IMG/VR virus record: IMGVR_UViG_3300033565_000003
Location: 1 to 55,170 of that record
Direction: 5' to 3' (one strand)
Source of the DNA: a virus
Lineage: Duplodnaviria; Caudoviricetes
DNA: 55,170 nt
The position numbers and the translations under genes are program-made. Positions 30,963 to 52,500 of the stretch are shown one piece after another. Within the stretch, counting starts at the first letter, position 1; every line of letters begins with the position of its first letter. A model generated the notes under the pieces. The model made no database searches. It had not been told where the DNA came from and saw only the letters and a program-made list of their open reading frames with translations.

Positions 30963-33296
30963 ATGGGTGCATTTGATGGTATACAATTTGCTAAATATAG
31001 ACCTACATATACAGGTCTACCAGTTGATCAGTTTGTAAAGACTGCTCAAGAGTTTAATACTCGATATGAGAATGCAGTTGAGGGTAAAGATAAGATTGAT
31101 GCTATGTTAGCCAATACTCCTGCTGCTGACATTAATCAACCTATTCTCAAAGATATTGCAAATGGTATTAATACTGATTTGCGTGGTTTTATACAAGAAG
31201 GTAATTGGGAAGACGCACCACTTGCTATTAAACAAACTGCTCAAAAACATATTATTACTAATCCTTTATATAAAGGTGTGGTTAATGATTACACGAATAG
31301 ACAAGACTTTCTTAAAATGCTTGATGAGGGTGTTAAGAAGGGTGTAGCTGGTGGAGGATTTAGTAAAGAATATGCTGATAAAGTTAAAAAGTATGAACTT
31401 GACTTACTAGGTAACGAACAAGTACATGTTGGGTCAGATGGTGCTCTTAAAGGTGTATTTAATCCAATTACACCACCTAAAGAGTTAGATCTTACTAGCG
31501 AAATGGTAAAGATTGGCAAAGAAGTTGTTGAAAGTAGTTATGTTGATTTACTTAAAAAGTATCCTGGAATACAAGGTTATCTTTATCAAGATACACATAC
31601 AGGTAAAGACCCTAAAGCTATTCAAATGGCAGTTCAAAATTATATATTGAATAGTCCTGACGCTAAGTCTTATTTAGACTTTAAAGTTAATCTTGATCAT
31701 CATGATAAATTTTACAATCCTGATACTAAATCATATAATACACCAACACAAGATGATATTATTAAACTAGGGTATAATGTATACAATCCTGTAATGGGAC
31801 CACCTAGAGAAGATGAAGTAGATCTTAGACCAGGTGATATTAGATACTCATTAGGTCCTGTTGCAACTAAAGATAAAAATGGTAATGATACAGATAATGT
31901 TGTAATGGCATATTCTAAACCAATTGGCAATATTAATGAAACTGACTTAAATGCTGTTTGGAGACAAGGTGCATCTGCTAACATGATTGACTTACCTATC
32001 AGAACTGTTGTTAGTATGTTAGGTGGTCAAAAAGTAGATAGAAAGCTTGTAGAAGATAACGTATATATGGAAAATTACAAAGATGGTTTACGTAAGAGAG
32101 CAGCAGCAGAAGAAGATCAAAAAGTAACAACATTTGCTGTAGGTTATAAACTTCCTGCTAAAGGCGTTGTTAATTTGCCAAAATCATATAATGATGTAGC
32201 TAAGATTAAACATGATTTTACTGTTAGTAATCTTGATTTACGTAATGATATTAATAGTACTACACTAACGGAAGATGAGAAACAACTTGTATCTGGCTTT
32301 CTTATTAATAAGAATAAATATTCTACTGAAGAAATATTAGGTTTTCATAAATGGAGTGATCCTGCTGTTGTTGCATTGCTTGGAATGAAAAGAGATGCTA
32401 CACGTTCAGTTTATGATTCAGCAGTAATGATTGAAAATGCAGCAAAAAAGTATGCAAATGTAACAGATGAAGAAGTAGAAAGTATAGTTAAATCATATAG
32501 GAATCAAGCTATTGAAAACATTAATGCTGCTCAACAAGCTGAATATAGTTCAAGTGATTTACCAATTGGAAGTGTTTTTAGTCCTACAAATTCATTATCT
32601 GAAAAAGCTATAGAACGAGAATCTAAATTATTAGCATTTAGAGATAATTCAAAACTTGCAAAATTTAATTCATTTCTTGAAGCACAATCTAATCAAAGTA
32701 ACATTCTTTCGCCTACTAATTTCTTTGGTAGTTCATCTACACAAACTAAAGACGTACAAGCATTAGTTAGTAATGCTGTAGAACAAGGTTTATCATCAGG
32801 CGGTATGCTTACTGTATATGACCCACAAACTGGTACTCAAATTACAGAAAATAAAAGAGATGAAATACTTGGCAATCTTGCGCCATCAAGTATTGATTTT
32901 GATGTAATTCCTGGACATGAGGGTATATCAATCATTGGTAGACCTATTATTGGTAAAGAGAAGAATGGTGTAGATAAACTTGGTGATTATGTTATTATTG
33001 ATGGTGTAATAGGTTTAGAGAATATATTAGCTAGTAATAAAAGTAGTGAACGATTAATCAATTATAAGAACATTACAAATAAAGCTAAGGTTACACCTGG
33101 CATACCTGCTTATCTACCTGGCACTAGAAATGCTAGAGTTACTATGAATTTAGCTAATCCTGATAGGCCAAATGATCCACCATCATATAAAGTTGAAACA
33201 TTCAATGGTAAAGATTGGGTAGCTGATATTCCATTATTTAGTTTAGGTGATGTATATGGTAGTTTTGATTTAATATACAATAACAATGGGAATTGA
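30963..33296 (+). CDS. cargo/ejection protein 2
   Basis: 777 aa, helical N-terminus (YRPTYTGLPVDQF), no Cys seen, between cargo 1 and the giant proteins. Overlaps the next start by 11 nt. Confidence 0.6.
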   Translation: MGAFDGIQFAKYRPTYTGLPVDQFVKTAQEFNTRYENAVEGKDKIDAMLANTPAADINQPILKDIANGINTDLRGFIQEGNWEDAPLAIKQTAQKHIITNPLYKGVVNDYTNRQDFLKMLDEGVKKGVAGGGFSKEYADKVKKYELDLLGNEQVHVGSDGALKGVFNPITPPKELDLTSEMVKIGKEVVESSYVDLLKKYPGIQGYLYQDTHTGKDPKAIQMAVQNYILNSPDAKSYLDFKVNLDHHDKFYNPDTKSYNTPTQDDIIKLGYNVYNPVMGPPREDEVDLRPGDIRYSLGPVATKDKNGNDTDNVVMAYSKPIGNINETDLNAVWRQGASANMIDLPIRTVVSMLGGQKVDRKLVEDNVYMENYKDGLRKRAAAEEDQKVTTFAVGYKLPAKGVVNLPKSYNDVAKIKHDFTVSNLDLRNDINSTTLTEDEKQLVSGFLINKNKYSTEEILGFHKWSDPAVVALLGMKRDATRSVYDSAVMIENAAKKYANVTDEEVESIVKSYRNQAIENINAAQQAEYSSSDLPIGSVFSPTNSLSEKAIERESKLLAFRDNSKLAKFNSFLEAQSNQSNILSPTNFFGSSSTQTKDVQALVSNAVEQGLSSGGMLTVYDPQTGTQITENKRDEILGNLAPSSIDFDVIPGHEGISIIGRPIIGKEKNGVDKLGDYVIIDGVIGLENILASNKSSERLINYKNITNKAKVTPGIPAYLPGTRNARVTMNLANPDRPNDPPSYKVETFNGKDWVADIPLFSLGDVYGSFDLIYNNNGN

Positions 33297-36200
33297 CATA
33301 AATAAGTTAAGAGAAGATGCTAATAAGAAAGCTGCACCTTCGACTAAAGGTATTGATATTAGACAGCTTCGTGCGACTCAATCTGATAGGATTGATCCAT
33401 ATGCACAGGGTTTCAATCCTGGTGTTATGCGTAATTTTGATGTTAACGAATTTAAGTTTCAACCTACATTTGATGGTGATAACTATAGAAAAAGAGCAGA
33501 ATTACAAGGTTTTGGTGAAAGTTTAGCAAAAGGTGCTGGTAATACTGTAGCTAATGCTATACTTGGGTTAGGTCGTGATGTTGGGTATTTAGCTGAGCTT
33601 GGTGGATGGATTGCAGGTAAAGAAACAGATTTTAGTAATGAGTTAATTGAAGGAACTGAACGACTTAGAAATCCATTTGGTGAAGTGTATCGTATTAATC
33701 CTAATAAAGTTTGGGATCCTACTGATAGTGCTTGGTGGATTAACAATGTTGGACAAGTTGCTGAAAGTGTTGGTACGTTTGCACTAGAGGGTTGGGGTTT
33801 AGGTAAACTATTTAGTTTTGCTGGTACGAGTCTTGCAAAAGGTTTAGGTAATAGTAAGACATTACTTGGACTTATTGATGATGTTGCTCAAACAGGTAGA
33901 TATTTTAAGCAAGGACAATCACTTGATGATTTTGGACAATTAGGTGTTAATATGGCACGTACTGATTTTCAAATACAACAAGCAGAAGCTAAAATAGTAT
34001 CTAATTTTATGCAAGGTACACAACGTGGTGCGCATCTTGCTAATTCATTTACACTTGCTTATATTGAGGGTGCTCAAATAGCTAATAATGTATACAAAGA
34101 AGTATATACTAAACAAAGAGAACAAGGTGTAGATGAAAGTACTGCCAAACGTATTGCTGCTGAATCTGCATCTATTACTGCTAAATGGAATACAGCATTA
34201 ATTGGTTTAACTAATCTTGCTGTTTTAGCACCACTTCATTCTAATGGTCAAGGCTTCTTTAAAAAGACTGCTGAGTTTGAACTACGCAAAGGTGAGGCAT
34301 TACCAGCTTACATAACTAGACTTGAAGGTATTCTTGCTGATCCTAAAACTAAACTTAGTATATTTAAACCTAAGAGTTTAAAAAAACTTGTAGCACTTGA
34401 ATCAGGACAAGAATTTATTGAAGAAGCAGGTATTAATAATTTTGCTGAATATAATGGTAATTGGCATGGCAAGAATGTAGAAGCTACATATGATGAAGAA
34501 TCATTCAATACTAATACAGAGCCTAAACCTGATTACATTAAAGGATTAACTAAACGTATTTTTAGTAGTCAAGCATTACTTGAAGGTATGCTTGGAGCAT
34601 TAGGTGGTGCAGGTCAATCACTAATTCTTGGTAGTCTTAAGAATCAAAAAGTATATGACCCTTCTAATCCTGGTAAAGTACTTGAAAAGATTAGTAGAAT
34701 CACACAAGAAAACAGACTTAAAGAAGAGTTTGTTGCTCGTACATTAAAAGAACTTCAAGAAGATGTTAGTTCGATGAATGATCAATTAGCTAAAGTTGAA
34801 GTATTAGCTGATAAAAATGATATTAATTCTAAATGGCAGAGAGAAGAACTTCTTAATAGACTATTCATACCAGTAACGTTGAAAGCTGTTATGGGTGGTA
34901 ATGCTAATCTATTTATTAACAGTTATGAAAATTTAAAGAATATTGATAATACAACTGATTTAGGTATTAAAGCAAAAGAAGAACTTGATCAACTGATTAA
35001 AGACAAACAAGAACTTGAAAGTACAGGTGTTGTCGATACTACTATTGATAATAGAATTGAAGCTGCTCAACAACGACTTGATTTAGTTAAAGGCAAGACT
35101 GAAGCTATGGTCAAAGGTTTTGCTGATAACACTAATGATAATAGGTATAAGGATAAAGCTGATTTAGCTATTGCTGTACTTAAAGAAATGGATGGTTTAA
35201 GTGAAGAACTTGAACGTACATATAGTTTTGAACTTGATGATCAGTTATCTGGCTACGCTAAAGCTATATATCTTGCTAATCTTCGTCGTGTATATTCTGA
35301 TGTAAATCATAAGTTTTATAGTAAGACTAAAGAAATGTATGAGCAACTGATTATAGATGAACTTACAGCATTGAATGTTGATGAGAAAGCACAAAATCAT
35401 ATGCTTAAAACTAATAGACTTAAAATATTAGATAGTTACATTACAGAAGCACAACAAGAATACGATGCGTTTATTAATAAGAACACTAAAGAAGCTAAAG
35501 AACAAAATAAGAAACTTAAATCTGCCAAAGATACATTAGACTTTCTTACTAAAGAATTACTTGAATCTGAAGTTGATGTTATAGTTGCTAAGATTGATCA
35601 AAGCAGACTTAATGAAGTTAATGTTAAAAACCTTGAAGGTATTAATAAAAATCTTACTCAATTAGAAGTTGAGAAGAATGTAGCATTAGAGCGTCTAACT
35701 GATCTTACTAAAGGTGATAGTAGAAAGGAATGGATTGCTAATTGGAAAGTTGAATTAGACCTTCTTAGAGAAGATGCTAAACAACATGAAAAAGCATTGA
35801 TGCTTGGTAAGATAGTTAAAACTAAAGTTGAAGATTTAGATAAACTTGTATTTGATAAGAATGATAAAGATTTAACTGATTTAGTTGAAAGTCGTAAACG
35901 TGATCATGCTAAAGAACAAGCTGATGAATTAAAGAAGAAAGAAGCACAAGCTGTCATTGATAGTGCAAAGAAAGAAGCAGAAGAAGTTATAACTGTTGAG
36001 CCAGAAGTTATAGTTGATCCTGAAACAGCTGTTGTTGTAGAAGCAGAAGAAACTGTTAAAGAAGAAGTTATTGAAAAACCTAAACGTATACGTAAAAAGA
36101 AATCTACAACTCAAACAACCATATCAACTGAACAAGTAGATGCTAATATAGTTGTACCTGGTTTATCTAGTAATCTTAATAATGCATTAAGTTTATTTGA

Positions 36201-39200
36201 TACAATTCCTGATATTGAACCTAATACTGAACAAGTAGTTGAACAGATAGAAGTAATTACACCAACTCAACTTGAACAAGAGATAGCTGAAATTAACGAA
36301 CGTCGTCAACTTATATTAGATTTTGCTAAAAGCAAAGAAGCACAAGAGATAGCTACAGCTGCTGCTAATGCTATTACTGCTTTAGTTGCTATTAGTCAAA
36401 TATCTGCTGATGATATAAATACATTTATTAAAAGTGAAGATGGTGAAAAACTAATTGATACTGCATTAACATTTAATTCAATAACTGGACGTAGACTATT
36501 TACAATAGACCCAGTTAAATTTGATGATAAAGCTAGTATTTATGATGCTATATTAACATATAATGAATATATTAATAACGTTAACATATTATTTATAAAT
36601 AAACAATTTGATGATGAAATAGATAATGCTAAAGTTAATGCTAATCAAAAACCATTGCAATCATTTGATTTAACTGGTATTAGTCCAACTAGTGATGAAT
36701 ATATTAATGCCATACAAGCATTTATGTATTTAATTAATCAAATGTCTACATCTATGTATGATGAACATACTGCATTTACATTACAACAGATATTTGATTA
36801 TATTAATGATGAAGATCCTAGTATGGCAACTCTTAAAAAATATGAACGTAAATTAATGAATGCTGCTAAGATTTTACTTGTTAATCAACACAGAGCAGAT
36901 GAACATTCTTTATATCAACAAGTAATGAATAGATTAGATTTTACACAACAAGAAGAACTTATTCTTACTAATCTACCAAAGAATTTTTATGTTGATACAA
37001 TAATGTCTAATAAAGATTATAATATAGCATTAGGCGTATTTACATCTATTGTTAATAAGTTTGATGCTAATAACTATTTAGAAGTTACTAATTTTATTGA
37101 TAATCAAAAAGAAATACTTAATGATCATCAACGGTTATTACTTGAACATATGCTTTATAATCCTAATTTTGGTAGTAAAGCAATTATTCGTGTTGATAAA
37201 GAATATAAGAGTAGATTTATTCAAAATGGACAAGCAGATAAATATTCTTATGAAGCTACTAAAAATAACTCTAATCTTGTACCTGTTGCTGTATTTGACC
37301 ATGCTACCGGACTAAAGATTGGTCAGATAGTTACTATACCTTATATTGTAATGAACATTATCAATGCAGGTAGTAAAACATGGTTTGATACTAATGATTT
37401 ACATCGTGCTATTGAAAGAAATTATAATGCATTATATCAACTTTATAGAGGTGTTGAATTGAATACTGATGAATGGGATCAATTAATGATTGATTTTAAA
37501 GAAACATATAATGTTAATCGTAAAGATAATCCATTATATGCTGAATTAGATAGAACTAACATTGATGATTATAATAAAATTGTTGATGCCATTACTCATA
37601 TGGCTAAAGTAATGTTTTTTGGTTCTACTTATACAACTGAACATACTAATTTAGATACATATACTAATGCAAAAGAATTTATTGAAAAGAATTTAGCTAA
37701 TCAAAAAGCGCAAGTTATCAGTACTATTGAACATACTAGACGCATTAGACAACAAGTGCTTAGTCAAAGCTTTGTTACAAGTTTACATAATGTGCATGGT
37801 GGTACAGTACTTAAATCTAATATGGTAACAGATGGTGGCTTTCAACTTAAATCTAATCTTTTAGATACTATTGTTGTACTAAAACAAGTGCCTGTTACTG
37901 ATATTAATGGCAATGAAATGCTAGATGAGAAAGGTAATGTGATAACTCGTGGACTCCCCATAGAGGATAGAGCAGAGAGATTAAAGCATATTAAGTTATA
38001 TTTTAAACCATACACATCTACTGATGTTAGTGGTGATATAACAATATCAAATATAGCAGATGATGATGATACCATGGTTATCAATACTAATAAATCTAAA
38101 ATACCTGTTTTGTATGTCAGAGTTCAAGGTAGAAATCATGATATACCAATGCAAGTATTCAGAAGTAAAATTAGTGAACTTGGTAATAGTGAAGAATATA
38201 TTAATGGTATCATACTTGAAATACTTACTCAACTTAGAAATAATGTAAAAGGTTCTGCTCTTACTCCTAATCAAATGGGTGCTACATTAGCATCTATAAT
38301 ACAAGAGGGTGGTACTAAGAAACAATTTATATTTAATACTAAACAAGTAGTAAAGGTTCAAAAAGAAGCTGGTAAATCAGATAGTGTGTCACAAGCTACT
38401 TTTGAAATACTTTATGAAGAAGGTGAAAGTACTAAAATTGTTAGAAGTCTTAAGGTACAAGTTTTTGGTAATGTTGTAACGTTATTTAAAAATGTTGTAG
38501 AAGATAACAAAGATATGACATTAGAATCACTTAATAGAGCATATGATTATAAAAATGGTATAAAACTTGAAAGTAATCCTGATTTATTTCATGCTACATT
38601 AGCTAATGCTATTAGTCAACAAACACGTTCATTTTCTTCAATTCATGCTAAGAAAACAGATTGGGTTGATCCAATTACTAAAAAGACTTATGATACATAT
38701 ACTGAATATTTAATTGCTACAGAAGCAGTAAAGACTGATGTTGCCGCTTATGTTATGAATGGAGTTCCTATTTCTAATATTGGTGGTATTGGTTGGTCAA
38801 ACTTACGTGCGGAAGTTAGAGTTGATGATTTGCAGAATAGAGCAATATCAACTGCTGATAATAATATACGTAAAGGTAGAAAGCAATCTGGTGTAGTTAA
38901 ACCTAAAGTTACTCAACCAAAGAAAATACCTAAACAAGTTAGAGCAAAGAAGTCTACTGCATTAAAAAGTGTTGTTCCTATTGATACAAAAGTATTATAT
39001 ACATTTGAAGAAGCTAAAAGTAAATTAAGTGAGAATGACGTTGCTATGATTGAAGCATTACATCTTCAAGATACAGAATTTATTCTTATCACTGATGATA
39101 ATAGATTTGCAGTTATTGACTACCTAAGTAAGACCCCTTATGGTGGTTCAATTATTAATCTTATCAATACATCAAATGCAATATATCATCCGTCTATTCC

Positions 39201-40512
39201 TAATCTTATAACAGTAGTTAATAACAAGCCTGGTGTTATTCCACATGAACTTATACATCGTAGTATAAGAAATTTAACTATAGAACAACAAACAGCATTA
39301 GAAAAAGAAAGTGTTGAAATATTTGAATTCATTAAACAAAGAATACAAACTATAACTAATGCAAATGAATTACGTCCAAAAGATAAAAAAGAAGTTATAC
39401 CACCACAAGTTCTAGAATGGGTTGAACGACTTGAAACATCAGATATAAGTGAACTTTATACTTATATATTTGAATATCAAGATATTGCTAAATGGTTAGC
39501 GAATCAAAAATATGATGATAATGGTAAAGAGAAATCTACATTTAGAGTACTTATTGAAAAACTTTTGAATGTAATTGGTGGAATCTTTGACGGTAGCATT
39601 CTTGATAAGATGATTAACACATTAGAATCATATGTAGCTACTGAAGAAATATCATTTGCTAATGAAGTTATAAATAAGTTAGAAGAATCACAACTTAATA
39701 TTGTTACAATTGAAGTTACAGATAATGGTAGAACCATTAATGATGTTGAAACCGATAGAGTAACTAATAGAATACCAAATATTAGAGTTGAAAATGATTT
39801 TAATGAGACTATTGCTACAAAAGTAGGAACTGAAGTAGATGGTGCATTACGTCAAATGTTAGATGGACAACAATATATACCATTAAATAACGTAGATGTA
39901 TCTGATGAAGCATATGAAGATTTATTAACTATTTCTACAGAACTATATGAGTGGGCTGCTCAAAATGATGTTACTTTGTATGCTAAAAATACAGTATTAT
40001 TTGATCTTAATGCTAAGATATCAGGTGAATTTGATATTATAGCTGTTCATAATAAAGAGAAGAAAGTTAGTATAATAGATATTAAAACAAGTTTGAAGAG
40101 TAAAACTAGTATAGATACAGCATATTATACTAAATATAAAGGTACAAGTGGTGAAACATTGAGTTCGTACGATAGTCATTCTAATCAAGTTAGTGTATAT
40201 GCACATTTATTTGAACAACAAACAGGTTACAAAGTTGAGAACATATATGTACTACCTTTGACTGTTAGTTACATAGAAGCTGAAAACATACTATCAGGTG
40301 TATATATAGATGGTGATTCATTAACTCTTATACCACTTACACGTAATGAACAATTAATAAGCAAATTATTTAATACTGCACCAGCAAGTAGTAAGCGTAG
40401 ATCAAGTGAATTTGACAATCTATTTTCTGAACCACTTGTAAGTATGACTATTGATGAACTTATAAAACTAAAAGTTGATACAAAAGAATTAACTGCAATT
40501 TGTGGTTTCTAA
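33286..40512 (+). CDS. giant polyvalent cargo protein with zincin-like metallopeptidase and C-terminal PD-(D/E)xK (RecB-like) nuclease domains
   Basis: Gly-rich hydrophobic helices in the N-terminal ~450 aa, long coiled coils, HELIH (H1987-H1991, nt 39244-39258) with downstream E2056, then SGEFDII (D2250), IIDIKT (D2265/K2267) and QVSVY. Confidence 0.8.
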   Translation: MGIDINKLREDANKKAAPSTKGIDIRQLRATQSDRIDPYAQGFNPGVMRNFDVNEFKFQPTFDGDNYRKRAELQGFGESLAKGAGNTVANAILGLGRDVGYLAELGGWIAGKETDFSNELIEGTERLRNPFGEVYRINPNKVWDPTDSAWWINNVGQVAESVGTFALEGWGLGKLFSFAGTSLAKGLGNSKTLLGLIDDVAQTGRYFKQGQSLDDFGQLGVNMARTDFQIQQAEAKIVSNFMQGTQRGAHLANSFTLAYIEGAQIANNVYKEVYTKQREQGVDESTAKRIAAESASITAKWNTALIGLTNLAVLAPLHSNGQGFFKKTAEFELRKGEALPAYITRLEGILADPKTKLSIFKPKSLKKLVALESGQEFIEEAGINNFAEYNGNWHGKNVEATYDEESFNTNTEPKPDYIKGLTKRIFSSQALLEGMLGALGGAGQSLILGSLKNQKVYDPSNPGKVLEKISRITQENRLKEEFVARTLKELQEDVSSMNDQLAKVEVLADKNDINSKWQREELLNRLFIPVTLKAVMGGNANLFINSYENLKNIDNTTDLGIKAKEELDQLIKDKQELESTGVVDTTIDNRIEAAQQRLDLVKGKTEAMVKGFADNTNDNRYKDKADLAIAVLKEMDGLSEELERTYSFELDDQLSGYAKAIYLANLRRVYSDVNHKFYSKTKEMYEQLIIDELTALNVDEKAQNHMLKTNRLKILDSYITEAQQEYDAFINKNTKEAKEQNKKLKSAKDTLDFLTKELLESEVDVIVAKIDQSRLNEVNVKNLEGINKNLTQLEVEKNVALERLTDLTKGDSRKEWIANWKVELDLLREDAKQHEKALMLGKIVKTKVEDLDKLVFDKNDKDLTDLVESRKRDHAKEQADELKKKEAQAVIDSAKKEAEEVITVEPEVIVDPETAVVVEAEETVKEEVIEKPKRIRKKKSTTQTTISTEQVDANIVVPGLSSNLNNALSLFDTIPDIEPNTEQVVEQIEVITPTQLEQEIAEINERRQLILDFAKSKEAQEIATAAANAITALVAISQISADDINTFIKSEDGEKLIDTALTFNSITGRRLFTIDPVKFDDKASIYDAILTYNEYINNVNILFINKQFDDEIDNAKVNANQKPLQSFDLTGISPTSDEYINAIQAFMYLINQMSTSMYDEHTAFTLQQIFDYINDEDPSMATLKKYERKLMNAAKILLVNQHRADEHSLYQQVMNRLDFTQQEELILTNLPKNFYVDTIMSNKDYNIALGVFTSIVNKFDANNYLEVTNFIDNQKEILNDHQRLLLEHMLYNPNFGSKAIIRVDKEYKSRFIQNGQADKYSYEATKNNSNLVPVAVFDHATGLKIGQIVTIPYIVMNIINAGSKTWFDTNDLHRAIERNYNALYQLYRGVELNTDEWDQLMIDFKETYNVNRKDNPLYAELDRTNIDDYNKIVDAITHMAKVMFFGSTYTTEHTNLDTYTNAKEFIEKNLANQKAQVISTIEHTRRIRQQVLSQSFVTSLHNVHGGTVLKSNMVTDGGFQLKSNLLDTIVVLKQVPVTDINGNEMLDEKGNVITRGLPIEDRAERLKHIKLYFKPYTSTDVSGDITISNIADDDDTMVINTNKSKIPVLYVRVQGRNHDIPMQVFRSKISELGNSEEYINGIILEILTQLRNNVKGSALTPNQMGATLASIIQEGGTKKQFIFNTKQVVKVQKEAGKSDSVSQATFEILYEEGESTKIVRSLKVQVFGNVVTLFKNVVEDNKDMTLESLNRAYDYKNGIKLESNPDLFHATLANAISQQTRSFSSIHAKKTDWVDPITKKTYDTYTEYLIATEAVKTDVAAYVMNGVPISNIGGIGWSNLRAEVRVDDLQNRAISTADNNIRKGRKQSGVVKPKVTQPKKIPKQVRAKKSTALKSVVPIDTKVLYTFEEAKSKLSENDVAMIEALHLQDTEFILITDDNRFAVIDYLSKTPYGGSIINLINTSNAIYHPSIPNLITVVNNKPGVIPHELIHRSIRNLTIEQQTALEKESVEIFEFIKQRIQTITNANELRPKDKKEVIPPQVLEWVERLETSDISELYTYIFEYQDIAKWLANQKYDDNGKEKSTFRVLIEKLLNVIGGIFDGSILDKMINTLESYVATEEISFANEVINKLEESQLNIVTIEVTDNGRTINDVETDRVTNRIPNIRVENDFNETIATKVGTEVDGALRQMLDGQQYIPLNNVDVSDEAYEDLLTISTELYEWAAQNDVTLYAKNTVLFDLNAKISGEFDIIAVHNKEKKVSIIDIKTSLKSKTSIDTAYYTKYKGTSGETLSSYDSHSNQVSVYAHLFEQQTGYKVENIYVLPLTVSYIEAENILSGVYIDGDSLTLIPLTRNEQLISKLFNTAPASSKRRSSEFDNLFSEPLVSMTIDELIKLKVDTKELTAICGF

Positions 40513-40561
40513 CTTAAAACAAGTCATTTAAAAGCTAAATAAGCACCTAAAACCAATTGAA

Positions 40562-43500
40562 ATGAGCTGTATATATAATTATCACAATCAAACATTTACT
40601 AGCAAAGAAGAACTCTATATTCATCTTGTAGCTGAAACTGTAAAGCATCTTGAAAACTTCACTATTCCTGCTAAACTTTTAGAAGATATTGCAAGTGGTG
40701 CACTTGATTTTAACGATAAACAACTTACTAAAAAACTTATTGATGCTGGTATATCATCACAATATGCTAGTTGGATTGCAGCATTGACTAAACGTTCTGA
40801 TTATATTAAAGCTATAGCAAATCCTACTGATGCTATTGAAAATACTACACCTACTACTTTTATTCAACCTGAATTTGATTTTGATGAAAGACCTGAAATA
40901 GCAGAAGATAGTGAACTACATTTAGTAGAAACAGAAGATGGTGTTACAATACAAGGATTGTCAGCTACTGGAGAATTGGTTACTGTACCTTTATTTAATG
41001 TTAGACAGAATATTGTAAATACTAATCAAAATTTATATGTTCATAATATATTTCCTAATATTGAAGCACAACAATATACTTTTAGAGTATTAGCTAATAC
41101 TTTTGTTCGTATTATTAATAAAGTTAATATTAAGCTTATTGATGTAGAAGAGGGTGTTAACGATGTTAAGACTCAAATGCTTGATGCACTATATAATGCT
41201 ATATTTGATGAATATGGTGAACATAGTGATTATATGAAGAACTTTATAACACTTGAAAATGCATTGAAAGAAAAAGATAGTCCACTATGGATTAGCTTTA
41301 AAGCTCATTTAAATAGATATCATGGATATAAGATAACTGATCTTAATGATGCCAAAGATGAAGAGGGTATGCTTAAGAAAAGTTGGGATGCTAATTATCA
41401 ATTTAGTGTTGATAAGAAAACTACTATTGCTAGTGAAATAAAAGACTTATTTAACACATCATATAAAATTGTTAAATATAAAGTTAAAGATACAGATACA
41501 AATATTGATAACAAGTTTGAAAAAGAAAACCTTGATAAAACTACTTGGTTAGGTATGCCTGATAGTTTACAATGGATGGATTATGCTAGTATGATGCTTA
41601 AACTTATGGCAGACGCTACAACTAAAGAACAGATGTTGGAACGTTTACGTATTATGTCATCAATTAACAAACCTAAAGCAAAAGCTCTTTATAATATATA
41701 TCTAAAACTTAAACCTAAACTTAATGATGATGGTAGTTTAAATGAGGAATTACTAGAAACATGGTATAGTCAGTTTGCGCAACAACATCCTATTGCTATA
41801 CTTGATCTTGTGCAATCTAATAATAATGTTATCATACATAATTCTGTTATTAGTAATAGGTCAACTATTGTTGAATTTAATGTTACTGATAGGTGGGTTA
41901 AAGAATTTATTGGCAAAGTAATTGATTATACCAATAGTACTGAAAAGAACAAAGAAAAACATAAAGTACAAGCATTTCTTAATGAATACGATAGTTTAGT
42001 ACAAATTATTAATAGTGGTGTATTCGGTACAAGTATAACAGCTATTAACAAATTTTATGCTAAACTAGCTAAACATCTTAATAACATTGGTATTGATATT
42101 AGTGCTGCTGAACTAGAATATGTAACATATAAAGATGGTTCACCTAATGGACTCAAAGGTTCTCTTCTACTTCCTATGGGGAAGTTACAGCAGTTCATAG
42201 TAAACTACAAAGGTGACAATAATTTTGAATCATATAACGATTTAAAACAACTTGCCTTAGCTATTAAATTATTCAGAATGGATGAAGCTGACACATCTAG
42301 TGTTAATGCTAATAATGAAATAGAACAATCATCTTTTAATCCTAATTTTATATCTGATAGAATAAAAGAACTTAAAAACCCTGAGACTCGTGTATCTGCA
42401 CTACTTAAACTTGCACGTATTCCTCAACTTCAACATTCTAATTGGCTATGGCATGAACCTAATCGTAGTAATATAGTATCTGGTATGCTTAAATATAGTT
42501 TAGATGATAAAGGTAAACGTATTCCTGTATTTAAAGATAACAAATTACAATATAATGAAGATTTTGTTAATAATTTTGATATAGTACTATACAAAGGTGT
42601 TAAAGATACTATCAATAATAAAGTTGATGAGTACGATACATTTGATGATAATGCTAGAATGCAAAGTGATATACTATCATTTTTCAATAATCCTAGAATG
42701 CAGTTTACAGGTCTAGGTTTATATACTATGCGTTGTAACTCAGATAGTACTTGGACTTATAAGATTTATAATGCTATTACTGATCTACCTACTGCTGTTA
42801 TTGATTTTGTTAAATCTGATAAAGTTAAAGAAGATGCACATACTATCTTTGGTACTAGGATATTTAAAGCTTTTTTAAATGTTTATAAACAAGATGTTGA
42901 TGAGATTAATCAAGCATTAGCATTAATGTTTGAAACTAATGCTCAAGGTCTTGTTTATGAAAATGGTAAATTAAAGATTAAAGAAACATTAGATTTAAGT
43001 ATACTTGACGAAGGTTATCACTTTAAAGATAAAGATAAGAATGGCAATCCTATTATATTAGACAAATATGGTAAGCCAACAGGTCGAGTATTTAAAATGA
43101 AAAACTTACGTCTTGCTGATGGTACATTCATACAAGATGAGATATTAGCATTATCAGATTGGAATAAGGTATATACATCTGATTTCACTTCTATTGAGAT
43201 TAAAAGAATTAATACTTTTATTGCACAAGTTATGCATGAAACAGTGCAACTTGGTCTAGCTGAATTTAATAAAATTAAAGATAATTTACTTACTGTTAAA
43301 TCAAAAGCTAACGTTAATATATTTACAGAAGATAATTTTGAAGCTAAAATTGCTACATTCTTATTGAATGATTATATATCTAATGTTGAACAAGGACTTT
43401 GGTGGGAAGGTACATTAAGTGAATTTAATACTAGTAAAAATGATAATACAGGTTATACTTACTTAGATTATCTCAAACGCTCTAGCGCATCTACTAAATT

Positions 43501-46500
43501 TGTACAACGTGCTAATCCATCTATTGTTGTAAATGGACAAGTCCGGACTGGTTGGAAAACACTTATTGTAAATGATTTAGAGATAGAAGATATACTTCTT
43601 AATAATAAGATAGATACTGTTTATGAAGATCTTATTAAACGTAAAGTTATTACTAAAGATGATACGTTTAATGCAAAACATCTTATTGGTAAAGTTAATT
43701 TTAATACATTAACTAGTGCTGAAGCATTTGTATATTCTGAAATTAAAGCTTATAAAAAGATGACATTATCTGATGGTATTAGTATCATCACATATAATGA
43801 GTTTAAGAATAGAATGAAAGCTTTTGGGCTTATTGGCAAATATAAAGCATTATTTGATAAGATTGATAATGGACAACCAATAAATAGTACAGATCATAGT
43901 TTACTTATTGAATCACAAAAAGAATTTTATTATCATAGAGTTCATAATGCTACTAATAATACATTTAAAAGTAGACTTGTAAAAGACTCAAAGTACATTC
44001 TTATACCAGGTTATGAACCTAGTGATCAGCTTACTGATTTGCATGAATTTATGATGCGACATGGTATTGATGAAGTACAGTTTCAAAGTGGTAATAAAAT
44101 ACAATCTGGTCAAAGTGTTAATATCTTTGATAAAAAGAATCAACTTAAGAAATTTACTACTGATGAACTTAATCACATTAAAAGTAGAATTCAAGAATCT
44201 CATTATAAATACCTTGGCATACAGCAATCTATTCATAGTATTGAATTAGATAGTAACAACAAACTTGGTGTACAAATAATGAAGATTATTTGGGATAATA
44301 TATCACCTAAAGCAATATATACTTTAAATGGTAAAAAAATTACTGGTACCGAACTGTTTGCTAAATTTGGAAAACTGTTTAGTTCACAAATTAGAGAATC
44401 TGTTAATCAAATGATTGTTGAATTTGGTGGCAAATTAGAAACAATAAATGGTGAACTTAATTATGTGTATTCAGATGAAATGATTTCATTAACTGAACTT
44501 ACTACTTACATACTTACACAAGCTGTAAAACAAGGTTTAGATAATAACATACTTTATGGATTACAAATTGGTGAAAATGGTAGAACTAATGTTCCATTAT
44601 CAGGTAATATTCATAGAAAGAAGATACTTTCTATATTAGAATCTGTTATTACTAATAGAATTATTAGACAAGTACATCCAGGACCACATGCTGTACTTGT
44701 ATCTAATGCTTTTATGAATGATTCACGAAAGTATGTTAAAGGAAGTAAGCTTGCTAATAAAAAGATTAAGTTTATTAAACGTATTCAAGATGCGATAGAC
44801 AGAGGTGAAAGAACATCATCATTACAAGCAGAAACATTAAGTAGTAATGGAGAAATTATAATTAAAGCAGAAGTAGTTTTATCACCTTGGACTAAATATA
44901 TTGTTAAAGATGGAAAATTACTTGTTGACATTAATGATTTATCAGAGGATGTACGTACTATGATTGCGTATCGTATTCCTTATGAAGATAAACATAGTAC
45001 TATTTATCTTGAAGTAGTTGGTTTTATCGAATCAGGTGCTAATCAAATATATGTGCCAGATGAGATTGTTCCTCGTTCAGGTACTGACTTTGATATTGAT
45101 ACTGAATATTTAATGGCATATAATTTATATGCTAATAGTAAAGGTGAAATTAAAGTGTTAAAATATATTGAAGATGATGCAACAAAACAATCTGATATTT
45201 ATATCGAACAATGGATTGCATATAAACGTTCAATGTTTCATAAATATGGTGATGTAATACCTAATAATATAAGTGAAGCACTAAAAGATAAGTATAATGA
45301 ATTTCATATGTTATTAGATACTAATATTACATATGATGGTGATCCTGAAATAAAGAAATTAGCCTTTACTCGTAGAAAACTATTTAAACAACTTAATGCG
45401 GAACGTGCTAACAAAGTTCCTAATAAAGCTCTTATTAAGGATTTAAAGAATAAAATTAATATTATTAATCCACAGATTGAAGCATCTAGTGAATTTAAAG
45501 AATATGTACAAGCATCTAAAAATAAGAAGCTTGGTCTTACAACAGTAAATGAACAATTAAATACACTACATGAAGAGATAGAACAAGCATTAATTAATGC
45601 TAAACTTCTACCAACATTTAATGAATTTAAAACATTATCAGAAGAGGATAGAAATACGTATGAAGCAAAACAAAACAAAATGCTTGATACGATGATTGCA
45701 GTTATATCTAATCCTGAACATTTGTATGAACTTCGTAAGTCTAATGTGTTTGAAGAAATTCAAATAAGTAAAGAACAGATTGATAATAAACTTACACTTC
45801 ATAATGTTGAAATTAATATTAACAATTATACAAGCAAACTTAAAACTACTAAAAGTCTATTACAAACAGTTAGCCTTAAAGGTAATGCGGTAGCGTTTAA
45901 ATCTTTAATATCTATGCTATCTAAGCTTGATACTAGACTTTCTACTAGTGAAGATAACAACTTAGGTGTTAAATGGAAATACAAATTTAGTGAACTTGCA
46001 ATTCCTATATCTGATATTATTGCTAAATATGGAGAAACTAACGTTCAAGTAAATGACTTTACACAAGAAGTTACTATTACTCACTTATTTGTTGGTAATA
46101 CACTACTTAATGATGGTAGAAATATGGCTAATTCTCAAATTAGTTCATATCTTGCACAGGTCGTATCTAACATACTTGATTCTGTTAAATTCCCTATGAG
46201 TTATAATCTTAATGGTATTACTCTTAACTTATATAGTATATTACCAACATTAGGTGTAAGTCATAGAATAACTCATACTGCTGATGAAAATACATTTGTT
46301 AATGATAATCCATTTATTGGTGGTGATAGTTTTATTCATCAACCTATCATATTAGAACTTGTTAATAAGATTAAACAAACTAATAGTAATACGTATACTG
46401 GTTCTGAAAAGAATAAAGAACTTTATGTTATTCGTAATAAGTATTTAAGTAAATTAATTACATTATATAACGATAATTCTAAATTTGCTAATCTAAGTAA

Positions 46501-49500
46501 TGAAGAAGGTAAAGTTATAGATAACGTCTTACATTCTATTGCCGGTGGTAAAAATATATACTTAAGTGATGAAGAAAACGTTCCTGTACTTAAAAAAGTA
46601 CTTGGCTTTGATTGGACTGAAATACCAATTTTATCATTAAGCGAACTTACTAGTGCATTAACAGATTTTAATGAAAACACTGCAACAGAAGAACAACTTA
46701 AATATCAACTTCTTTTACTTAATAATTGGACACAACTAGATAAGATTAAAAAGGCTTTATTTGAAGCAATACAAATACTTCGTCAAGATAAGAAAGAGTT
46801 TTCCATTGCTGATCATAATAATGTAACTAATAAGATTAACTATAAATCTAATGATTTATCATTATATAATGTAGTTGATGGAAAAGCAGTAAGTATATAT
46901 GAAAACATATACGAAAATAATGCTTATCCTATACTTAGTTCTATCTATGATTATGCATATACTGCTGCTAATAGAATGATTTCTCCTTTATTAATTAGTG
47001 AATCTAACATAGTACAAACATATCTTAATAAGTTTTTTGAACAACATAAAATATACAGACCTGACGTTAAAGAAAAGATTACTGATTATCTAGTTAATCA
47101 TATTTTAACTAGACTACCTATATTAGCTGAAATTGATGAAAAAGAAATTAAAGATCGAATACTCAGTTTGGGTGAAACAAACGATCTTGATAGTAATATG
47201 TCATTAGATGAATTTATTACTTTAAATTTAGATGATAAAATTGCATGGTATAAAGAAAACTATGCTAATGTAATTGAAATTAATGGTAATAATAACATAC
47301 TTAATAAGATTACTATTAAAAATAAGTCAGAAGATATAGCTAGACATGGCTATGTTCGTTTAGAATATATGTCTGATACAAATAACAACGAAGCACTAGA
47401 CAGTGTTAATAGAATTTACAATTCTAATGATTTTGGTAAAGCACTTGTTGAAGATATTATTCGATATTCATTTTTAACAGAAGGTTTAACTTATGGTTTT
47501 AATCTTTCTAAAACTATACCTTACACTATACTTAAAAATTATGGTTATAGCGAATTATTATATAATGTACAAAAGTATTTAGTTGATGCTCAGAATGAAA
47601 TTGATGGTAAACTAACCATGTATCAATTACTTAGTGATCCATCAAAGATTCAAGTACTAGAATTAGAGAATCATTATAATGATGCTGCTATCAGAGCGTT
47701 ATTCTTTGAAAATAGTAATATCATTAATGATGAACATTTCATGGAAATGATATATAAAACTAACTTCTATAATAACAATCTCATTCCTATTTTGAGAATG
47801 TCTGAACATATGGAAGAAATTAACGGTGCATATATCATTGGTAATGATCAAATTGTTAAGAAGAATGGATATTATTCTAATTACTTAACTAATACTTATG
47901 TTAGGATTAAATCTAATAATATTAGAAATTTACTTCAGATGAACAATAATCATGACTTATTTGATAAGTTAGAATTACTAGAATTTGGAGAAGAATTTGA
48001 TCTTAATATTCATAGTCATATACAAGGTAAATTATCATTTAAAAATGTTAATCTAAATGACTTTTTTGAAGGAAATATAGTTGCTATTCGTAGTCCATAT
48101 AACAGAAATCAAGATAGCAGATATGTAAATCTTGAAATAATAGATGCTACAAATCCAAAAGCAGTACGTGTTCGTAAGACAAGTAGTTCTGCTGCTATGA
48201 TAGAAAGTTTATATAAACAACTATATGTTGATGATGGAAGAGGACGTGGTGTTACAATGTATTATCCTATTGAAAGAATGCTACCTAGTGAATATGGTCG
48301 TACAAGTATTCAAGCTTTCAAACCTATTTACAATGAAGAATTTTATCGTGAAGATTTAATGGGTTATGTACTAGAAAAGCGTAAGGTTAACACTAAAGTG
48401 ATGGAACATTATAATAAGATTATTACTAATGATAATAAACCATTACAATCAGCACCTTTAACTTCACAATCTAATGAACCAGTTGTAGTATCTAACTATG
48501 AAAAAGCTATAGCTGAAGCATTAATTAATCATAAAGTTCTTGTTAAAACATTATTAAATAAATTTAGAGCATTAGATGGTGATATCATAACTGATGAAAA
48601 TGAAGCTACTGATGAAAATGTAGCAGTTCATATTCTAACTAATCTTACTAAAGGGTATGCTACATTAGACATCACTGCATTGGCTGCTTTAGCTAGACCT
48701 ACATTACTACAAGGACTTAAACATACACTTGCTGCAGCAACTGGTTTTGCTAATACATTTGAAGTTACCAAACTTAGGAGGATGATTGATAATTCAGGTG
48801 ATGATGTAGTAGCTTATTGGGCTAAAATACAAGAGGGTGGTAAAGAGTATAATGATTTAATGACTTTACTGTTTTCAATCAAACAATTTGTTGAAGGTTA
48901 TAATCAATTTACATCTCTTATTGAACCCTATCTTCCTGATTTGTTAGCAGAAATGAGTGAAGAAGATAGAGTTGTAGCACAACAAATAAATGATACAATC
49001 AAAAAACTTTCTGATTTAAAAGGTGCTATTGAAAAACTTAATAATACTCGTCATGCTGCATTTGAAAGATATGCCAATATAGAATTCAGAAGTATTAGTC
49101 ATAATCCAGAAGTTACATCTGATATGATTAATACTATAAAAAATGAACTTGCTAATATATTTGATGGCGCTTATGATGATATAGGTGTTATTAGATTATA
49201 TTTAGATAGTCCATTAGCTGTTGGTAATACAATAGCAGCTCTTGTTATTAAGAAGTTTTTACTTAATGAGCATAAAAGAAAGAGACATTCTGTTGAACTA
49301 TTAGAAAAGTTTGAATCAGCACTTGATAATTGGTTTGCTGTAACTAAATTTACAACACAAGGAATGAAAGACTTTAGTGCACAAAAAGATGATCGTGCTA
49401 AAGCATTCTTTAATACGTTTATAGATAAGGATAGCGGACGACTTATAACTGAATTTAAACATACGTTTCTTACTGACTTATGGAGTATGAAGAATGCACT

Positions 49501-52500
49501 TCAAATGTCATTAGAAGAAGAACAACATAATGGTGGCAAACAAAGTCCTAATTATATACTTAAAGAAAAAGAATATCATAAATGGCTAAGAGATAATCTT
49601 TCTCAACGTTGGACTGATGAATATCTTGATGCTAAAGAATCAATACAAGAAATACTTAATGCTAATCCTAATGCTAAAATATTTATTGAAAACATTAACG
49701 ATAAAATAAATGCTATTACATTAGGTAATAGAGATAGAACAGATTTAACTGAAGAGCAAAAAGATATGCTTAAGGATTATCAAAGTGATATTCGTAAAGC
49801 TGCATCTATGTATAATGAATTTGGAGCATTTAAAGAAGATTCTGAATTAGAATTAGCTAAAGTATTATCTGCTTGGCAAGAAGCTCGTACTGAGTTTTAT
49901 ACTAGATATCATACTGAACCTACAACTGAAAGTTTTGATAAAGAACTTAAATTAGCTAAGAAAATAGGTGGTGAAACACTAGAACGATTCCTAGCTAATA
50001 ATACTGAATTACGTATTAATAAAGAATTTTATACAAAACAAAAAGAATTGTTTGAAATACTTTATGGTATTGAATCTAATCCAGAACTTGAAACAATTAG
50101 CAAAACAATATCAGATTTTAAAAAGTCATATCCTAAAGGAGATTATCCAATTGCTGTACAAACTAAACTACATGAATTAGAGCAACGTAAACGTGATATC
50201 ATTAATGACGATAGAGACGAACGATTAGTCAAATTTACATCTATTAAAAATGATACTATTTATACTCCTGAATGGTATGAGTTATTAAGAGATGCCGGAC
50301 TCAGTTCATATTTAGATAAGAATATTATTAGCCAAATTGATACTAGAATTAAAGAAGCTAATAAGATTATTATGACAGTTGTTGATGAATATGGACATAG
50401 AAATAGTGAAAAATTAACACTTGATCAACTTAAACAATTACATGATTTACTTAAGGATATAAAAGATTTAAATTCACTAGCTGATCAAGGTGATACGCAT
50501 GAAAGTATATTTACATTGTTTGAAACAGTGTATGATATGGATGCATATAATACAAGTAGAAAAGAAGTAATGGATAAAAAAGACCCACAACTACTTGCTG
50601 CTTGGGATAAGATATTTACTCGTACAGTATATGATAAAGAGTATCAACAAAAGTTAGATGGTTTACTTAAACGTATTGCTAAAACAAATAAACTACAACA
50701 GTCTAAACTTGATAACAAGAAAAAAGAAATACGCGATATTAAAACATATCATTACGATGTTAATGGTATAGTTAATGGTCTTACATGGAATCAAAATGAT
50801 CCTAATGATTTAAGTGAAGTACTTAGAGTTAAAGAACTTGAAGAATTAGATGTAACATATATTAGGTTTACACCTTTAATTACAGAACGTGTTAAATACA
50901 CAAAAGAATTCTATGATAATGTTAATAGTATCAAACGTGCATATGAAACTGAAATTAATACTGAACGTAAAGAACAACTAGGTAAATATTTAGAGGAAAG
51001 TAAGAGTATAAAGATGCAGATTAATGAAATTTATTCTGTATATTCTGATAACGTTGAGGGTAGATATGATGCTACAGATATAGCATATGATGATTTACTA
51101 GCGTTAAAAGAGTTAATGAAAAAACTTGAAACATTACGAAATAAATATGATATACCTAAAGATACCGAACAAACAGCATGGATTAAAGCTAATACACGAA
51201 GCATATTTCATTCTACTGAATATGCTCAAGCAAATAGAGCTGTAATTGAAAAACATGGCAAAGATAGTGACTATTACAAAGCATGGGTTGATGTTAATTC
51301 AACATTAGATTATGCTACATATCATGATACTTTAAATGATATGTTGTATGATATCATTAAGGAAGAACTACGTAATAAAGCAATAGCTCTAAGTTTAGAC
51401 CCTAATACTGTTACTGATGAACAAATTCAAAAGGTTGTCAAAGCTAATAGAATAGATTTATCACCAGAGGGTAAAGCTGTTTATAAAAAGTATGGTGGGT
51501 ATGAAAAGATGGATTATAATACGTTAACTGATAAAGAACGTGTTGCCGTTGATACATTCATTCGATATGATGCTAATAATAAACCTCATAAATTTACGAG
51601 TACTGGTTTAATAGCAACTGTAGATGATGATATTGTTTATAAAGATGTTATCTCTGAATATGTAGAAAAATGGTCTATTGCACATGCCAAAGTTAAAAGT
51701 GCAAATACTACTTATGTGTTTAGAGATAATTACATTGCTAAACTTAAAGAACTTGCTCAACATAATAGAGTTTTTCAAGATGTACTTAATGCAATATTTG
51801 ATTATGAAAAAACATTTGATAACAATGCTCTTGAAACTAATATTTACTATTATGGTAGTATAATATTTGATGATGCTACAATTAGTAATGAAGATAAAGC
51901 ATGGTTCATGCAAGTTCACAGGATTACTAATACAGGAGAGGGTGCATTACCTAGAGGATATTATATGAAATCAGTTCCTAGAACTGGTACATATTTTACA
52001 CCTAATTCATTTATTTGGCATGAGTTTACACCAATTAATGATAAGTATATTGATAAGGCGGCACAAGAACTTAATGATATTATGCAGACAACAGTTACTG
52101 AATATTATCAGCAAGCTAAAGCAGCTAGTAAATTATTACCCAAAGATAAACAACGTGAATGGTTTAACAATAATCATATTTGGAATGAATTTACACAACA
52201 ATATGTACCTATTAGTATTTGGACTAAACGTACACCTAGACCTACTGCAAATGGTGATGGAACATACAATACTCACATAACAACTGTTCCTAATAAACAA
52301 TTCTATGGTTATGGTAAATTAGACTTAACACATCCTGAGGCTAGACGTTTGCATCATAAATACAAAGATAAAGCTAAAACAGATGCACGTAAAGAATTAA
52401 ATGATTTATCAGAAACAAAAACAACACCATTGTATGAGTATATTAAAAATACTATGAAGAATGGTGATCCTAAATTATATAATGAATGGTTTGCTAGAAA

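Follow-up and report, generated by a model that had tools for sequence, protein, structure and literature searches.

The analysed stretch of DNA (hereafter the window) is a whole IMG/VR virus record, IMGVR_UViG_3300033565_000003, of 55,170 bases with a completeness estimate of 60%, and it represents the module for structure and cargo in a highly divergent crAss-like phage. PHROGs matches identify genes for terminase, portal and major head protein in it, together with one for a phrog_15100 structural protein. The gene order of terminase, portal and capsid and, further on, muzzle protein, two cargo proteins, a gp47-type protein and the virion RNA polymerase (RNAP) matches the virion RNAP module of Crassvirales. 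Of interest here is a pair of cysteine residues (Cys) at the facing ends of the last two of these proteins, of 2408 and 4829 amino acids (aa), a placement that recurs at the protein breaks of related crassviruses.

A 1591-aa structural protein holds the position of the crassvirus muzzle protein and is followed by proteins of 725, 777, 2408 and 4829 aa, all on the plus strand. The 725-aa protein (28656-30833), with neither a protein-family nor a BLAST match, was assigned as a cargo protein by position only, that of crAss001 gp45, and the 777-aa cargo protein (30963-33296) holds the gp46 position and matches crAss002 gp31 weakly by BLASTP (E 1.5e-4). The 2408-aa protein (33286-40512) is the counterpart of crAss001 gp47: its residues 2173-2351 align with gp47 1707-1894 (BLASTP, E 1.5e-11) and its N-terminal residues 70-196 with gp47 88-210 (BLASTP, E 0.008), further BLASTP matches were obtained to p-crAssphage gp45 and crAss002 gp32, and tblastn matched it to gp47 in 32 records. 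Near its C-terminus (residues 2170-2325; 39793-40260, plus strand) lies a PD-(D/E)XK nuclease-like domain (phrog_298 'exonuclease', E 3e-13; 16.5 bits against Pfam PF12705, below the 22-bit cut-off), whose G/D...D.K...Q..Y columns are invariant across 10 sequences.

Following a spacer of 49 nucleotides (nt; 40513-40561), the 4829-aa protein (40562-55051) is a crass-type virion RNAP in the fused gp50+gp49 form, as in crAss002 and p-crAssphage. A regular-expression match located DFDID at residues 1509-1513 (45086-45100, plus strand), a catalytic motif of the DFDxD type that is named for crAss-like virion RNAPs in the phi14:2 preprint (10.1101/2020.03.07.982082). The motif is spanned by RNAP residues 986-1518, which align with crAss001 gp50 1006-1492 (BLASTP, E 2.6e-31), and residues 4301-4804 align with gp49 929-1332 (BLASTP), the gp49 matches having E values of 3e-11 and 8e-7; the match to the crAss002 RNAP was made by tblastn (E 9e-9). 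The RNAP had no Pfam or PHROGs match, and its residues 900-1600 had no match in a PDB sequence search. The divergence of the window was likewise evident from the absence of DNA relatives by blastn against the phage collection and of close protein relatives (2408-aa tail, RNAP head) in two scans of viral contigs and among 5.8 billion searched proteins; HMMER, run in full over 1.8 billion representatives, gave no more than 27 matches, all of them distant.

Recounting by script bore out the cysteine contents given in a preliminary description of the window, namely none in the 725-aa and 777-aa proteins, one in the 2408-aa protein (residue 2406) and two in the RNAP (residues 3 and 725). Cys2406, third from the C-terminus in the tail ...ELTAICGF, is encoded by the TGT codon at 40501-40503, and Cys3 in the RNAP head MSCIYNY... 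by the TGT codon at 40568-40570, both on the plus strand and both where that description had placed them. The ATG at 40562 is the first ATG, GTG or TTG past the in-frame stop at 40529-40531 and hence the first possible start, so that the MSC head is independent of the choice of start codon. The internal Cys725 (42734-42736, plus strand, coordinates computed from the start of the open reading frame, ORF) lies outside the terminal pattern and is without an obvious counterpart. The RNAP has no Cys near its C-terminus, nor where gp50 and gp49 meet (roughly residues 2440-3370).

Taken together, the four cargo proteins hold 3 Cys in 8739 aa, where about 49 would be expected at the 0.56% of the other 16 ORFs of at least 150 aa (48 Cys in 8559 aa; P = 1e-17), a suppression of Cys like that of phage ejection proteins in Schitoviridae. 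The accompanying claim that the neighbouring structural proteins use Cys freely applies to most of those 16 ORFs, at 0.2-1.2% Cys, and fails for four of them (364, 232, 504 and 579 aa), which have none. As post-hoc figures, the probability that two or more of the three Cys lie no further than 3 residues from one of the 8 termini is 2.3e-5, and that of their lying on the two facing termini is about 7e-7. With only three Cys involved in the window itself and an initial test that was post hoc, the placement could be ascribed to chance, to composition bias or to an artefact of gene calling, and the counts in related genomes are what bears on this explanation.

The window proteins are members of the crassvirus gp47/gp50/gp49 module, showing all of its testable defining features. 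The crAss001 proteins gp47, gp50 and gp49 and the phi14:2 proteins gp65, gp66 and gp67 are homologous to them, lie in the same neighbourhood and follow the same terminal-Cys rule; they differ in that only short stretches align, and that the fusion of gp50 and gp49 within 4829 aa leaves the window with one junction where they have two. The presence of the module proteins in virions is known for these two phages only, where they were found by mass spectrometry, as reported in the text of the crAss001 atlas (PMC10172136) and in GenBank notes for phi14:2. In crAss001, gp47 (2341 aa) has one Cys, third from its end, gp50 has Cys at residue 5, at residue 1334 and ninth from the end, and gp49 (1349 aa) has one, at residue 5; in crAss002 gp32 the single Cys is the penultimate residue. 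The phi14:2 chain runs from a 1797-aa protein with Cys at its last position (-1), through a 2180-aa protein with Cys at residue 3 and at -2, which is the crystallised RNAP (gp66, PDB 6vr4), to a 1421-aa protein with Cys at residue 3, all 4 Cys in 5398 residues being terminal.

Beyond crAss001 and crAss002, 17 further annotated genomes and two sets of IMG/VR loci were analysed. A junction of the gp47/gp50/gp49-type module was scored as paired when a Cys lay no more than 12 residues from each of the facing ends. The scored set comprised 21 genomes (the window, crAss001, crAss002, p-crAssphage, Rudgehvirus, cr3_1, cr8_1, cr11_1, cr271_1, cr127_1, cr128_1, phi14:2, FpV4, cr1_1, cr50_1, cr118_1, cr114_1, cr52_1 and the IMG/VR loci L109, L126 and L138), which span four Crassvirales families, the Flavobacterium phage FpV4 and environmental contigs. 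Left out of this count were a bajarodcaudo virus, in which gp50 is interrupted by an endonuclease gene and the gp49 start is unclear, and cr10_1, in which the downstream gene is absent from the annotation; terminal Cys was present in both wherever visible.

Cys was found at both facing ends of 27 of the 28 junctions, and of all 28 if one annotated start is corrected, the only miss being crAss002 gp33, which is annotated as starting 32 codons ahead of an internal M-S-C (Met33). The outer ends of the chains were bare, with Cys at 0/21 N-termini of first proteins and 0/21 C-termini of last proteins. Cys makes up 0.118% of the 131,288 residues of these module proteins, and 55 of the 155 Cys fall in the terminal positions, which amount to 0.9% of the total (binomial P = 4e-71, a figure that treats Cys as independent and ignores shared ancestry, so that the evidence is at most as strong as it suggests). 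Both the enrichment of Cys at termini across Crassvirales and the co-occurrence of the two facing Cys, on which the preliminary description had made its proposal depend, were therefore observed.

The larger collections conform to this distribution. In 80 Steigviridae loci, Cys was borne by the gp47 C-end in 68/68, the gp50 N-end in 65/65, the gp50 C-end in 78/78 and the gp49 N-end in 76/76 cases, and by the outer ends in none (gp47 N-end 0/18; gp49 C-end 0/75). Each Cys-bearing end occurred there with 12-14 distinct terminal 12-mers, indicating that the neighbouring residues vary while the Cys is kept. Among the distinct termini of 79 mixed loci, Cys was found at 14/14 C-ends of 47-like, 11/11 N-ends of 49-like, 15/17 C-ends of 50-like and 7/11 N-ends of 50-like proteins. 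The gp45/gp46-type proteins of these mixed loci had it at 0/19 C-termini and 0/17 N-termini, and ORFs without homology at 6/84 and 6/76 termini. An independent sample consisted of 27 cluster representatives at no more than 50% identity that were found through the nuclease domain only; 14 of them had Cys in the last 4 residues and 6 at residues 3-5, and 20 of the 35 Cys in 55,303 aa lay within 5 residues of an end. The counts in the 21 genomes, the mixed loci and the Steigviridae loci, with the family-wide enrichment, refute chance, composition bias and gene-calling artefact. C-termini are, moreover, fixed by stop codons, and the pattern holds at 11-21% identity, across strands and across spacer lengths, which leaves that explanation scarcely credible. 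The Cys pattern is a strict and widespread rule of the family, and apparently an undescribed one.

The preliminary description had further proposed that the pair should be present where genes are split and vanish where they are fused, and this agrees with what was found, since every break examined has the pair and the fused junctions are without it. The gp47/gp50/gp49 set is a single polypeptide of more than 5000 aa without Cys in some lineages and is distributed over two, three or four genes in others. The gp47|gp50 break, with its Cys pair, occurs in the window, Intestiviridae, Crevaviridae and Steigviridae; gp47 and gp50 are fused in Suoliviridae, in FpV4 and in the sequences P0003 and P0005, and P0003, P0005 and FpV4 each hold a single Cys, at -2 or -3 of the far C-terminus. 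The gp50|gp49 break carries its pair in Steigviridae, phi14:2, Suoliviridae and FpV4, and the gp50-gp49 fused forms, including that of the window, have no C-terminal Cys. In P0015, all three parts form a single 5278-aa chain with 0 Cys, and its IMG/VR relatives L179-L183 show 0 Cys in ORFs truncated by the end of the available DNA (four of 3234-4002 aa and, in L180, one of 1244 aa).

Breaks at unusual positions bring new terminal Cys with them: P0027, which begins inside gp47, has Cys at residue 5 and at -4, and P0013, which ends inside gp50, has Cys at -3. In L126, four consecutive proteins carry Cys at -1 in the first, at residue 4 and -1 in the second, at residue 5 and -1 in the third and at residue 4 in the fourth (6/6 Cys terminal), and three proteins of L138 have 4/4 Cys terminal. 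Nothing recognisable as a remnant of the tail or head motifs was seen at the junctions of fused proteins, and no IMG/VR relatives of P0013 and P0003 were found.

Several observations on gene structure were made in the same loci. Genes of the gp50 type are interrupted in L006, L012, L043, L049, L053, L076, L077, L095, L100 and L107, and in the bajarodcaudo virus (L089 17043-25226) an annotated endonuclease gene lies between the gp50-type pieces. Cys is absent from the ends made by such interruptions and present at those of true breaks, so that an intron or a comparable insert seems likelier here than two separate proteins. Intact gp50 ORFs range from 2396 to 2755 aa with a constant position of the N-terminal Cys. 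The annotated starts of crAss002 gp33 (L002 14366-14461) and of the bajarodcaudo gp49-type gene (L089 25177-25230) are probably too far upstream, internal Met codons giving the family-typical heads MSC... and MAKSC..., respectively. In-frame stops inside the annotated cargo genes of L177 and L178 (cr114_1 and cr52_1) under genetic code table 11 are as expected with stop-codon reassignment. Contigs that share only the gp47 C-terminal domain contain giant Cys-free ORFs of 2379-4969 aa with no detectable RNAP homology (L108 5780-18238, L131 764-15673, L124 5444-14638, L128, L146, L156 and L116), which may be further single-chain ejected proteins. The PD-(D/E)XK nuclease-like domain, situated in the gp47-type protein of the window and crAss001, is found inside the gp49-type proteins of P0008, P0014, P0019 and P0021, and has moved between chain members across lineages.

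At the level of the residues, the conservation of the terminal Cys in homologues, another point on which the initial proposal depended, was confirmed at 11-21% identity. The terminal Cys is the sole nearly invariant column in an alignment of 13 C-terminal regions; in 12 aligned RNAP heads M1 and C3 are nearly invariant, and there is otherwise only one invariant Leu. Counted from the end, the upstream Cys is at position 1-4 where the break is of the gp47 type and as far in as position 14 in Steigviridae gp50, and the downstream proteins begin M-x(1-4)-C. Gene spacers in the relatives range from -4 to 298 nt, and Steigviridae partners lie on opposite strands about 11 kb apart; a signal at the nucleotide level (DNA or RNA) was ruled out by these spacers and opposite-strand partners.

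It could be presumed that the thiols serve a role that involves no link, such as a modification (e.g. acylation), a redox switch or a non-covalent docking motif. The residues around the Cys, as read from the table of termini, often alternate between hydrophobic and polar in the manner of beta-strands and could form a docking pair. A docking strand should, however, conserve more than one residue, whereas the Cys is the sole residue kept in otherwise unalignable termini; the heads, with Cys at residues 3-6, have no lipobox or signal peptide, and the fused forms manage without any Cys, all of which makes such a role unlikely. Two specific modifications were also rejected. A bacterial lipoprotein does not fit a Cys at residues 3-6 right after the Met with no hydrophobic leader or lipobox, and CaaX-type prenylation needs a Cys at -4 in a fixed context, where the positions here range from -1 to -14.

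A link between chain neighbours accommodates these data more directly. The tail Cys is always matched by a head Cys, the outer ends are bare and both Cys are lost on fusion, from which we infer contact between every tail Cys and the head Cys of the protein that follows. No His or other conserved ligand was seen beside the Cys, which favours a disulfide over a metal site. We consider it probable that a single intermolecular disulfide is formed per break and re-joins the separately encoded pieces into one thread.

The metal clasp that had been named as an alternative, in which the terminal thiols, perhaps with other ligands, hold Zn, Fe or Cu and so bridge consecutive proteins, fits the same C-/N-terminal Cys complementarity at breaks. 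Other proteins offer examples of 'hooks' in which a metal bridges two chains. Here, each terminus offers one Cys with no conserved His, Asp or second Cys beside it, two thiolates alone would be a poor Zn or Fe site, and the all-fused forms are without Cys, so that function needs no metal site; a metal clasp is accordingly very unlikely. A catalytic or structural metal site was considered unlikely as well, the fused enzymes functioning without Cys.

Alternatively, the terminal Cys could bypass the chain neighbour and bond to a structural protein, be it portal, muzzle or part of the capsid interior, or to a further copy of its own protein. Crassvirus structural proteins are Cys-rich and, as described in the text of the atlas (PMC10172136), disulfide-bonded, and several small Intestiviridae cargo proteins have a C-terminal Cys with no N-terminal partner, both of which would suit such an anchor. 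It leaves unexplained, however, the matching numbers of C- and N-terminal Cys per break, the bare outer ends both in the 21 genomes and in Steigviridae, and the joint loss of both Cys on fusion, and we regard it as improbable.

To reach the host, the giant gp47-type, gp50-type (the catalytic part of the RNAP) and gp49-type virion proteins must pass through the tail in an at least partly unfolded state. Under the favoured disulfide, the facing thiols would bond in the mature virion and take the place of the absent peptide bond. The pieces would thereby make up an unbroken thread of uniform polarity, with no more than short stubs left over at each join. Such a thread would hold the subunits in order and in a 1:1 ratio through packaging and ejection, and the host cytoplasm would reduce the bond and free the subunits to work. 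The chain of the window would have two links, the 2408-aa protein with Cys2406 as the first and the 4829-aa RNAP with Cys3 as the last. The bond itself, the time of its formation, its effect on order and stoichiometry, and its opening by reduction in the cytoplasm are all derived here from the distribution of Cys and are to be read as a model.

This proposal fits three published statements. Partial unfolding, at the least, has been proposed to let crassvirus cargo proteins past the constrictions of the tail barrel (PMC10172136), the crAss001 tail and portal-vertex proteins are disulfide-bonded in cryo-electron microscopy maps according to the text of the same atlas (PMC10172136), and Cys is purged from ejected proteins, as described in the available text on N4-like phages (PMC11445570). 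The original wording of the proposal was wider, with all cargo proteins concatenated into one chain. This can be upheld for the 2408-aa protein and the RNAP, whose ends fit the family pattern, and not for the 725-aa and 777-aa proteins, which, like their homologues, are without terminal Cys.

Several points weigh against the disulfide thread. Its chemistry is deduced wholly from sequence, and the oxidation of thiols needs explaining in virions that assemble in a reducing cytoplasm and, in the case of the gut crassviruses, have an anoxic habitat. The phi14:2 preprint supposes, in the version consulted, that fused polyproteins are cleaved into components (10.1101/2020.03.07.982082), and if so, continuity of the chain is not always needed. 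The partnerless C-terminal Cys of the small Intestiviridae cargo proteins belongs here too. The avoidance of Cys is not absolute either: as many as 14 internal Cys occur in certain fused RNAPs (cr8_1 and cr271_1), and P0013 has retained Cys1958, some 20 residues beyond the gp47/gp50 fusion junction as mapped. Among the 79 mixed loci, the gp50 of L102 has its Cys at -14, beyond the 12-residue limit, and pieces of L107, L095, L100 and L122 are without Cys at some ends, these Cys-free ends looking like parts of an interrupted or cut gene. The genomes were, furthermore, chosen from search matches and are mutually related, and the P values overstate their independence. A complex prediction made from terminal alignments for the 2408-aa tail (270 aa) and the RNAP head (300 aa) gave a score of 0.00, with an uncertain partner fold, and speaks neither for nor against the thread.

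Further cysteine-related features of the crassvirus loci were noted in passing. A small membrane-anchored protein after the muzzle protein of Intestiviridae has a conserved 'RCGG' end and a basic tail, and the C-terminal Cys proteins of this family are located at L083 6401-7195 and 7316-9889, L084 8782-11055, L085 7739-8638, L087 5836-6642 and L002 3671-5344. The sole Cys of p-crAssphage gp47 (857 aa) is second from the end, and an N-terminal partner was seen neither for it nor for the 'RCGG' protein. In several crassviruses, genes annotated as thioredoxin family lie close to the RNAP gene, mostly within about 3 kb (L083 32706-32984 and 33704-33973, L084 34072-34347, L086 32898-33167, L091 36287-36532 and L089 16062-16307); in loci whose RNAP gene is on the plus strand, they are on the other one. 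That their products make or break the proposed disulfides is pure speculation. No thioredoxin is encoded in the 55-kb fragment record of the window, which ends 119 nt past the RNAP gene.

A protein chain of the A-B toxins, such as diphtheria toxin and the clostridial neurotoxins, crosses a narrow channel unfolded, tethered by a single disulfide, and is freed by cytosolic reduction. With one Cys per partner, this interchain disulfide is by analogy perhaps the nearest in working principle to the proposed crassvirus clasp, with no homology between the two. The toxin chains arise from one nicked precursor and do not have their Cys at both extreme termini, whereas the crassvirus proteins are separately encoded, sometimes on opposite strands, with Cys at the very ends, where a bond would make a linear join from head to tail. 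Split inteins also re-join separately encoded fragments at termini with a junction Cys, but they need Hint-domain halves of tens of residues, unlike the crassvirus ends. A split intein was thus rejected, no Pfam intein domain being found and only 0-13 residues following the C-terminal Cys and 2-5 preceding the N-terminal one.

The N4-like phages (Schitoviridae virion RNAPs gp50/gp71, with gp51/gp72 and gp52/gp73) likewise expel a giant virion RNAP and suppress Cys, as seen in the window, and the absence of Cys from the N4-type virion RNAP, ascribed to its passage through the envelope and periplasm, stands in print as the preliminary description had stated (PMC11445570). That RNAP is one Cys-free polypeptide, and no terminal pair is described for it in the available text of that article (PMC11445570). 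It belongs to a different type of polymerase, structurally distinct from the crassvirus RNAP as far as the consulted text of PMC13434306 describes it, and the comparison of the N4-like ejection proteins with the window is one of working and not of membership. The crAss001 particle provides a precedent for the oxidation of Cys, which is reported for the tail and portal vertex in purified virions; these are static bonds among Cys-rich structural proteins and not among ejected ones (PMC10172136).

No description of terminal cysteines in the crassvirus module proteins was found in the literature. In the main text of the crAss001 atlas, 'cysteine' is absent and 'disulfide' is used only for the tail and portal-vertex proteins (PMC10172136), and 'cysteine', 'Cys' and 'disulfide' are all absent from the preprint version of the phi14:2 study (10.1101/2020.03.07.982082). 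According to its available text, the atlas did not resolve the polymerase cargo proteins by cryo-electron microscopy, and both reduced and non-reduced virion samples were analysed by mass spectrometry, whose tables may hold data relevant to the bond (PMC10172136). What appears to be new is the Cys pair in this setting, the disulfide tethering of translocated proteins and the control of Cys in ejected phage proteins being known principles.

Crassviruses are the most abundant phages of the human gut, and the polymerase subunits that they pack and inject total roughly 700 kDa. For crAss001, the masses given in the atlas (262.5, 276.9 and 154.5 kDa; PMC10172136) add up to about 690 kDa. The two-residue rule marks which protein ends pair and in which order, and provides a model that is testable in cultured phages. 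It is also of use for annotation, where it helps to correct start codons, apparently set too far upstream in crAss002 gp33 and one bajarodcaudo virus gene, separates real protein breaks from genes interrupted by elements, and spots chain members without detectable homology, such as the middle pieces of L126 and L138. In its most general form, to which we assign roughly even chances, crassviruses would repeatedly have divided an ejected polyprotein longer than 5000 aa and free of Cys, and would each time have evolved a matched Cys pair as a 'disulfide splice'. The pieces would then be re-joined head to tail inside the particle, travel as one ordered 1:1 thread and be unzipped by the thioredoxin system of host or phage, the whole constituting a general grammar, readable from sequence, by which injected proteins are concatenated after translation. 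Should the bond exist, the tethering by disulfide known from translocated toxins would extend to the ejection of phage proteins, and ejected proteins would avoid Cys everywhere except where a Cys does a job.

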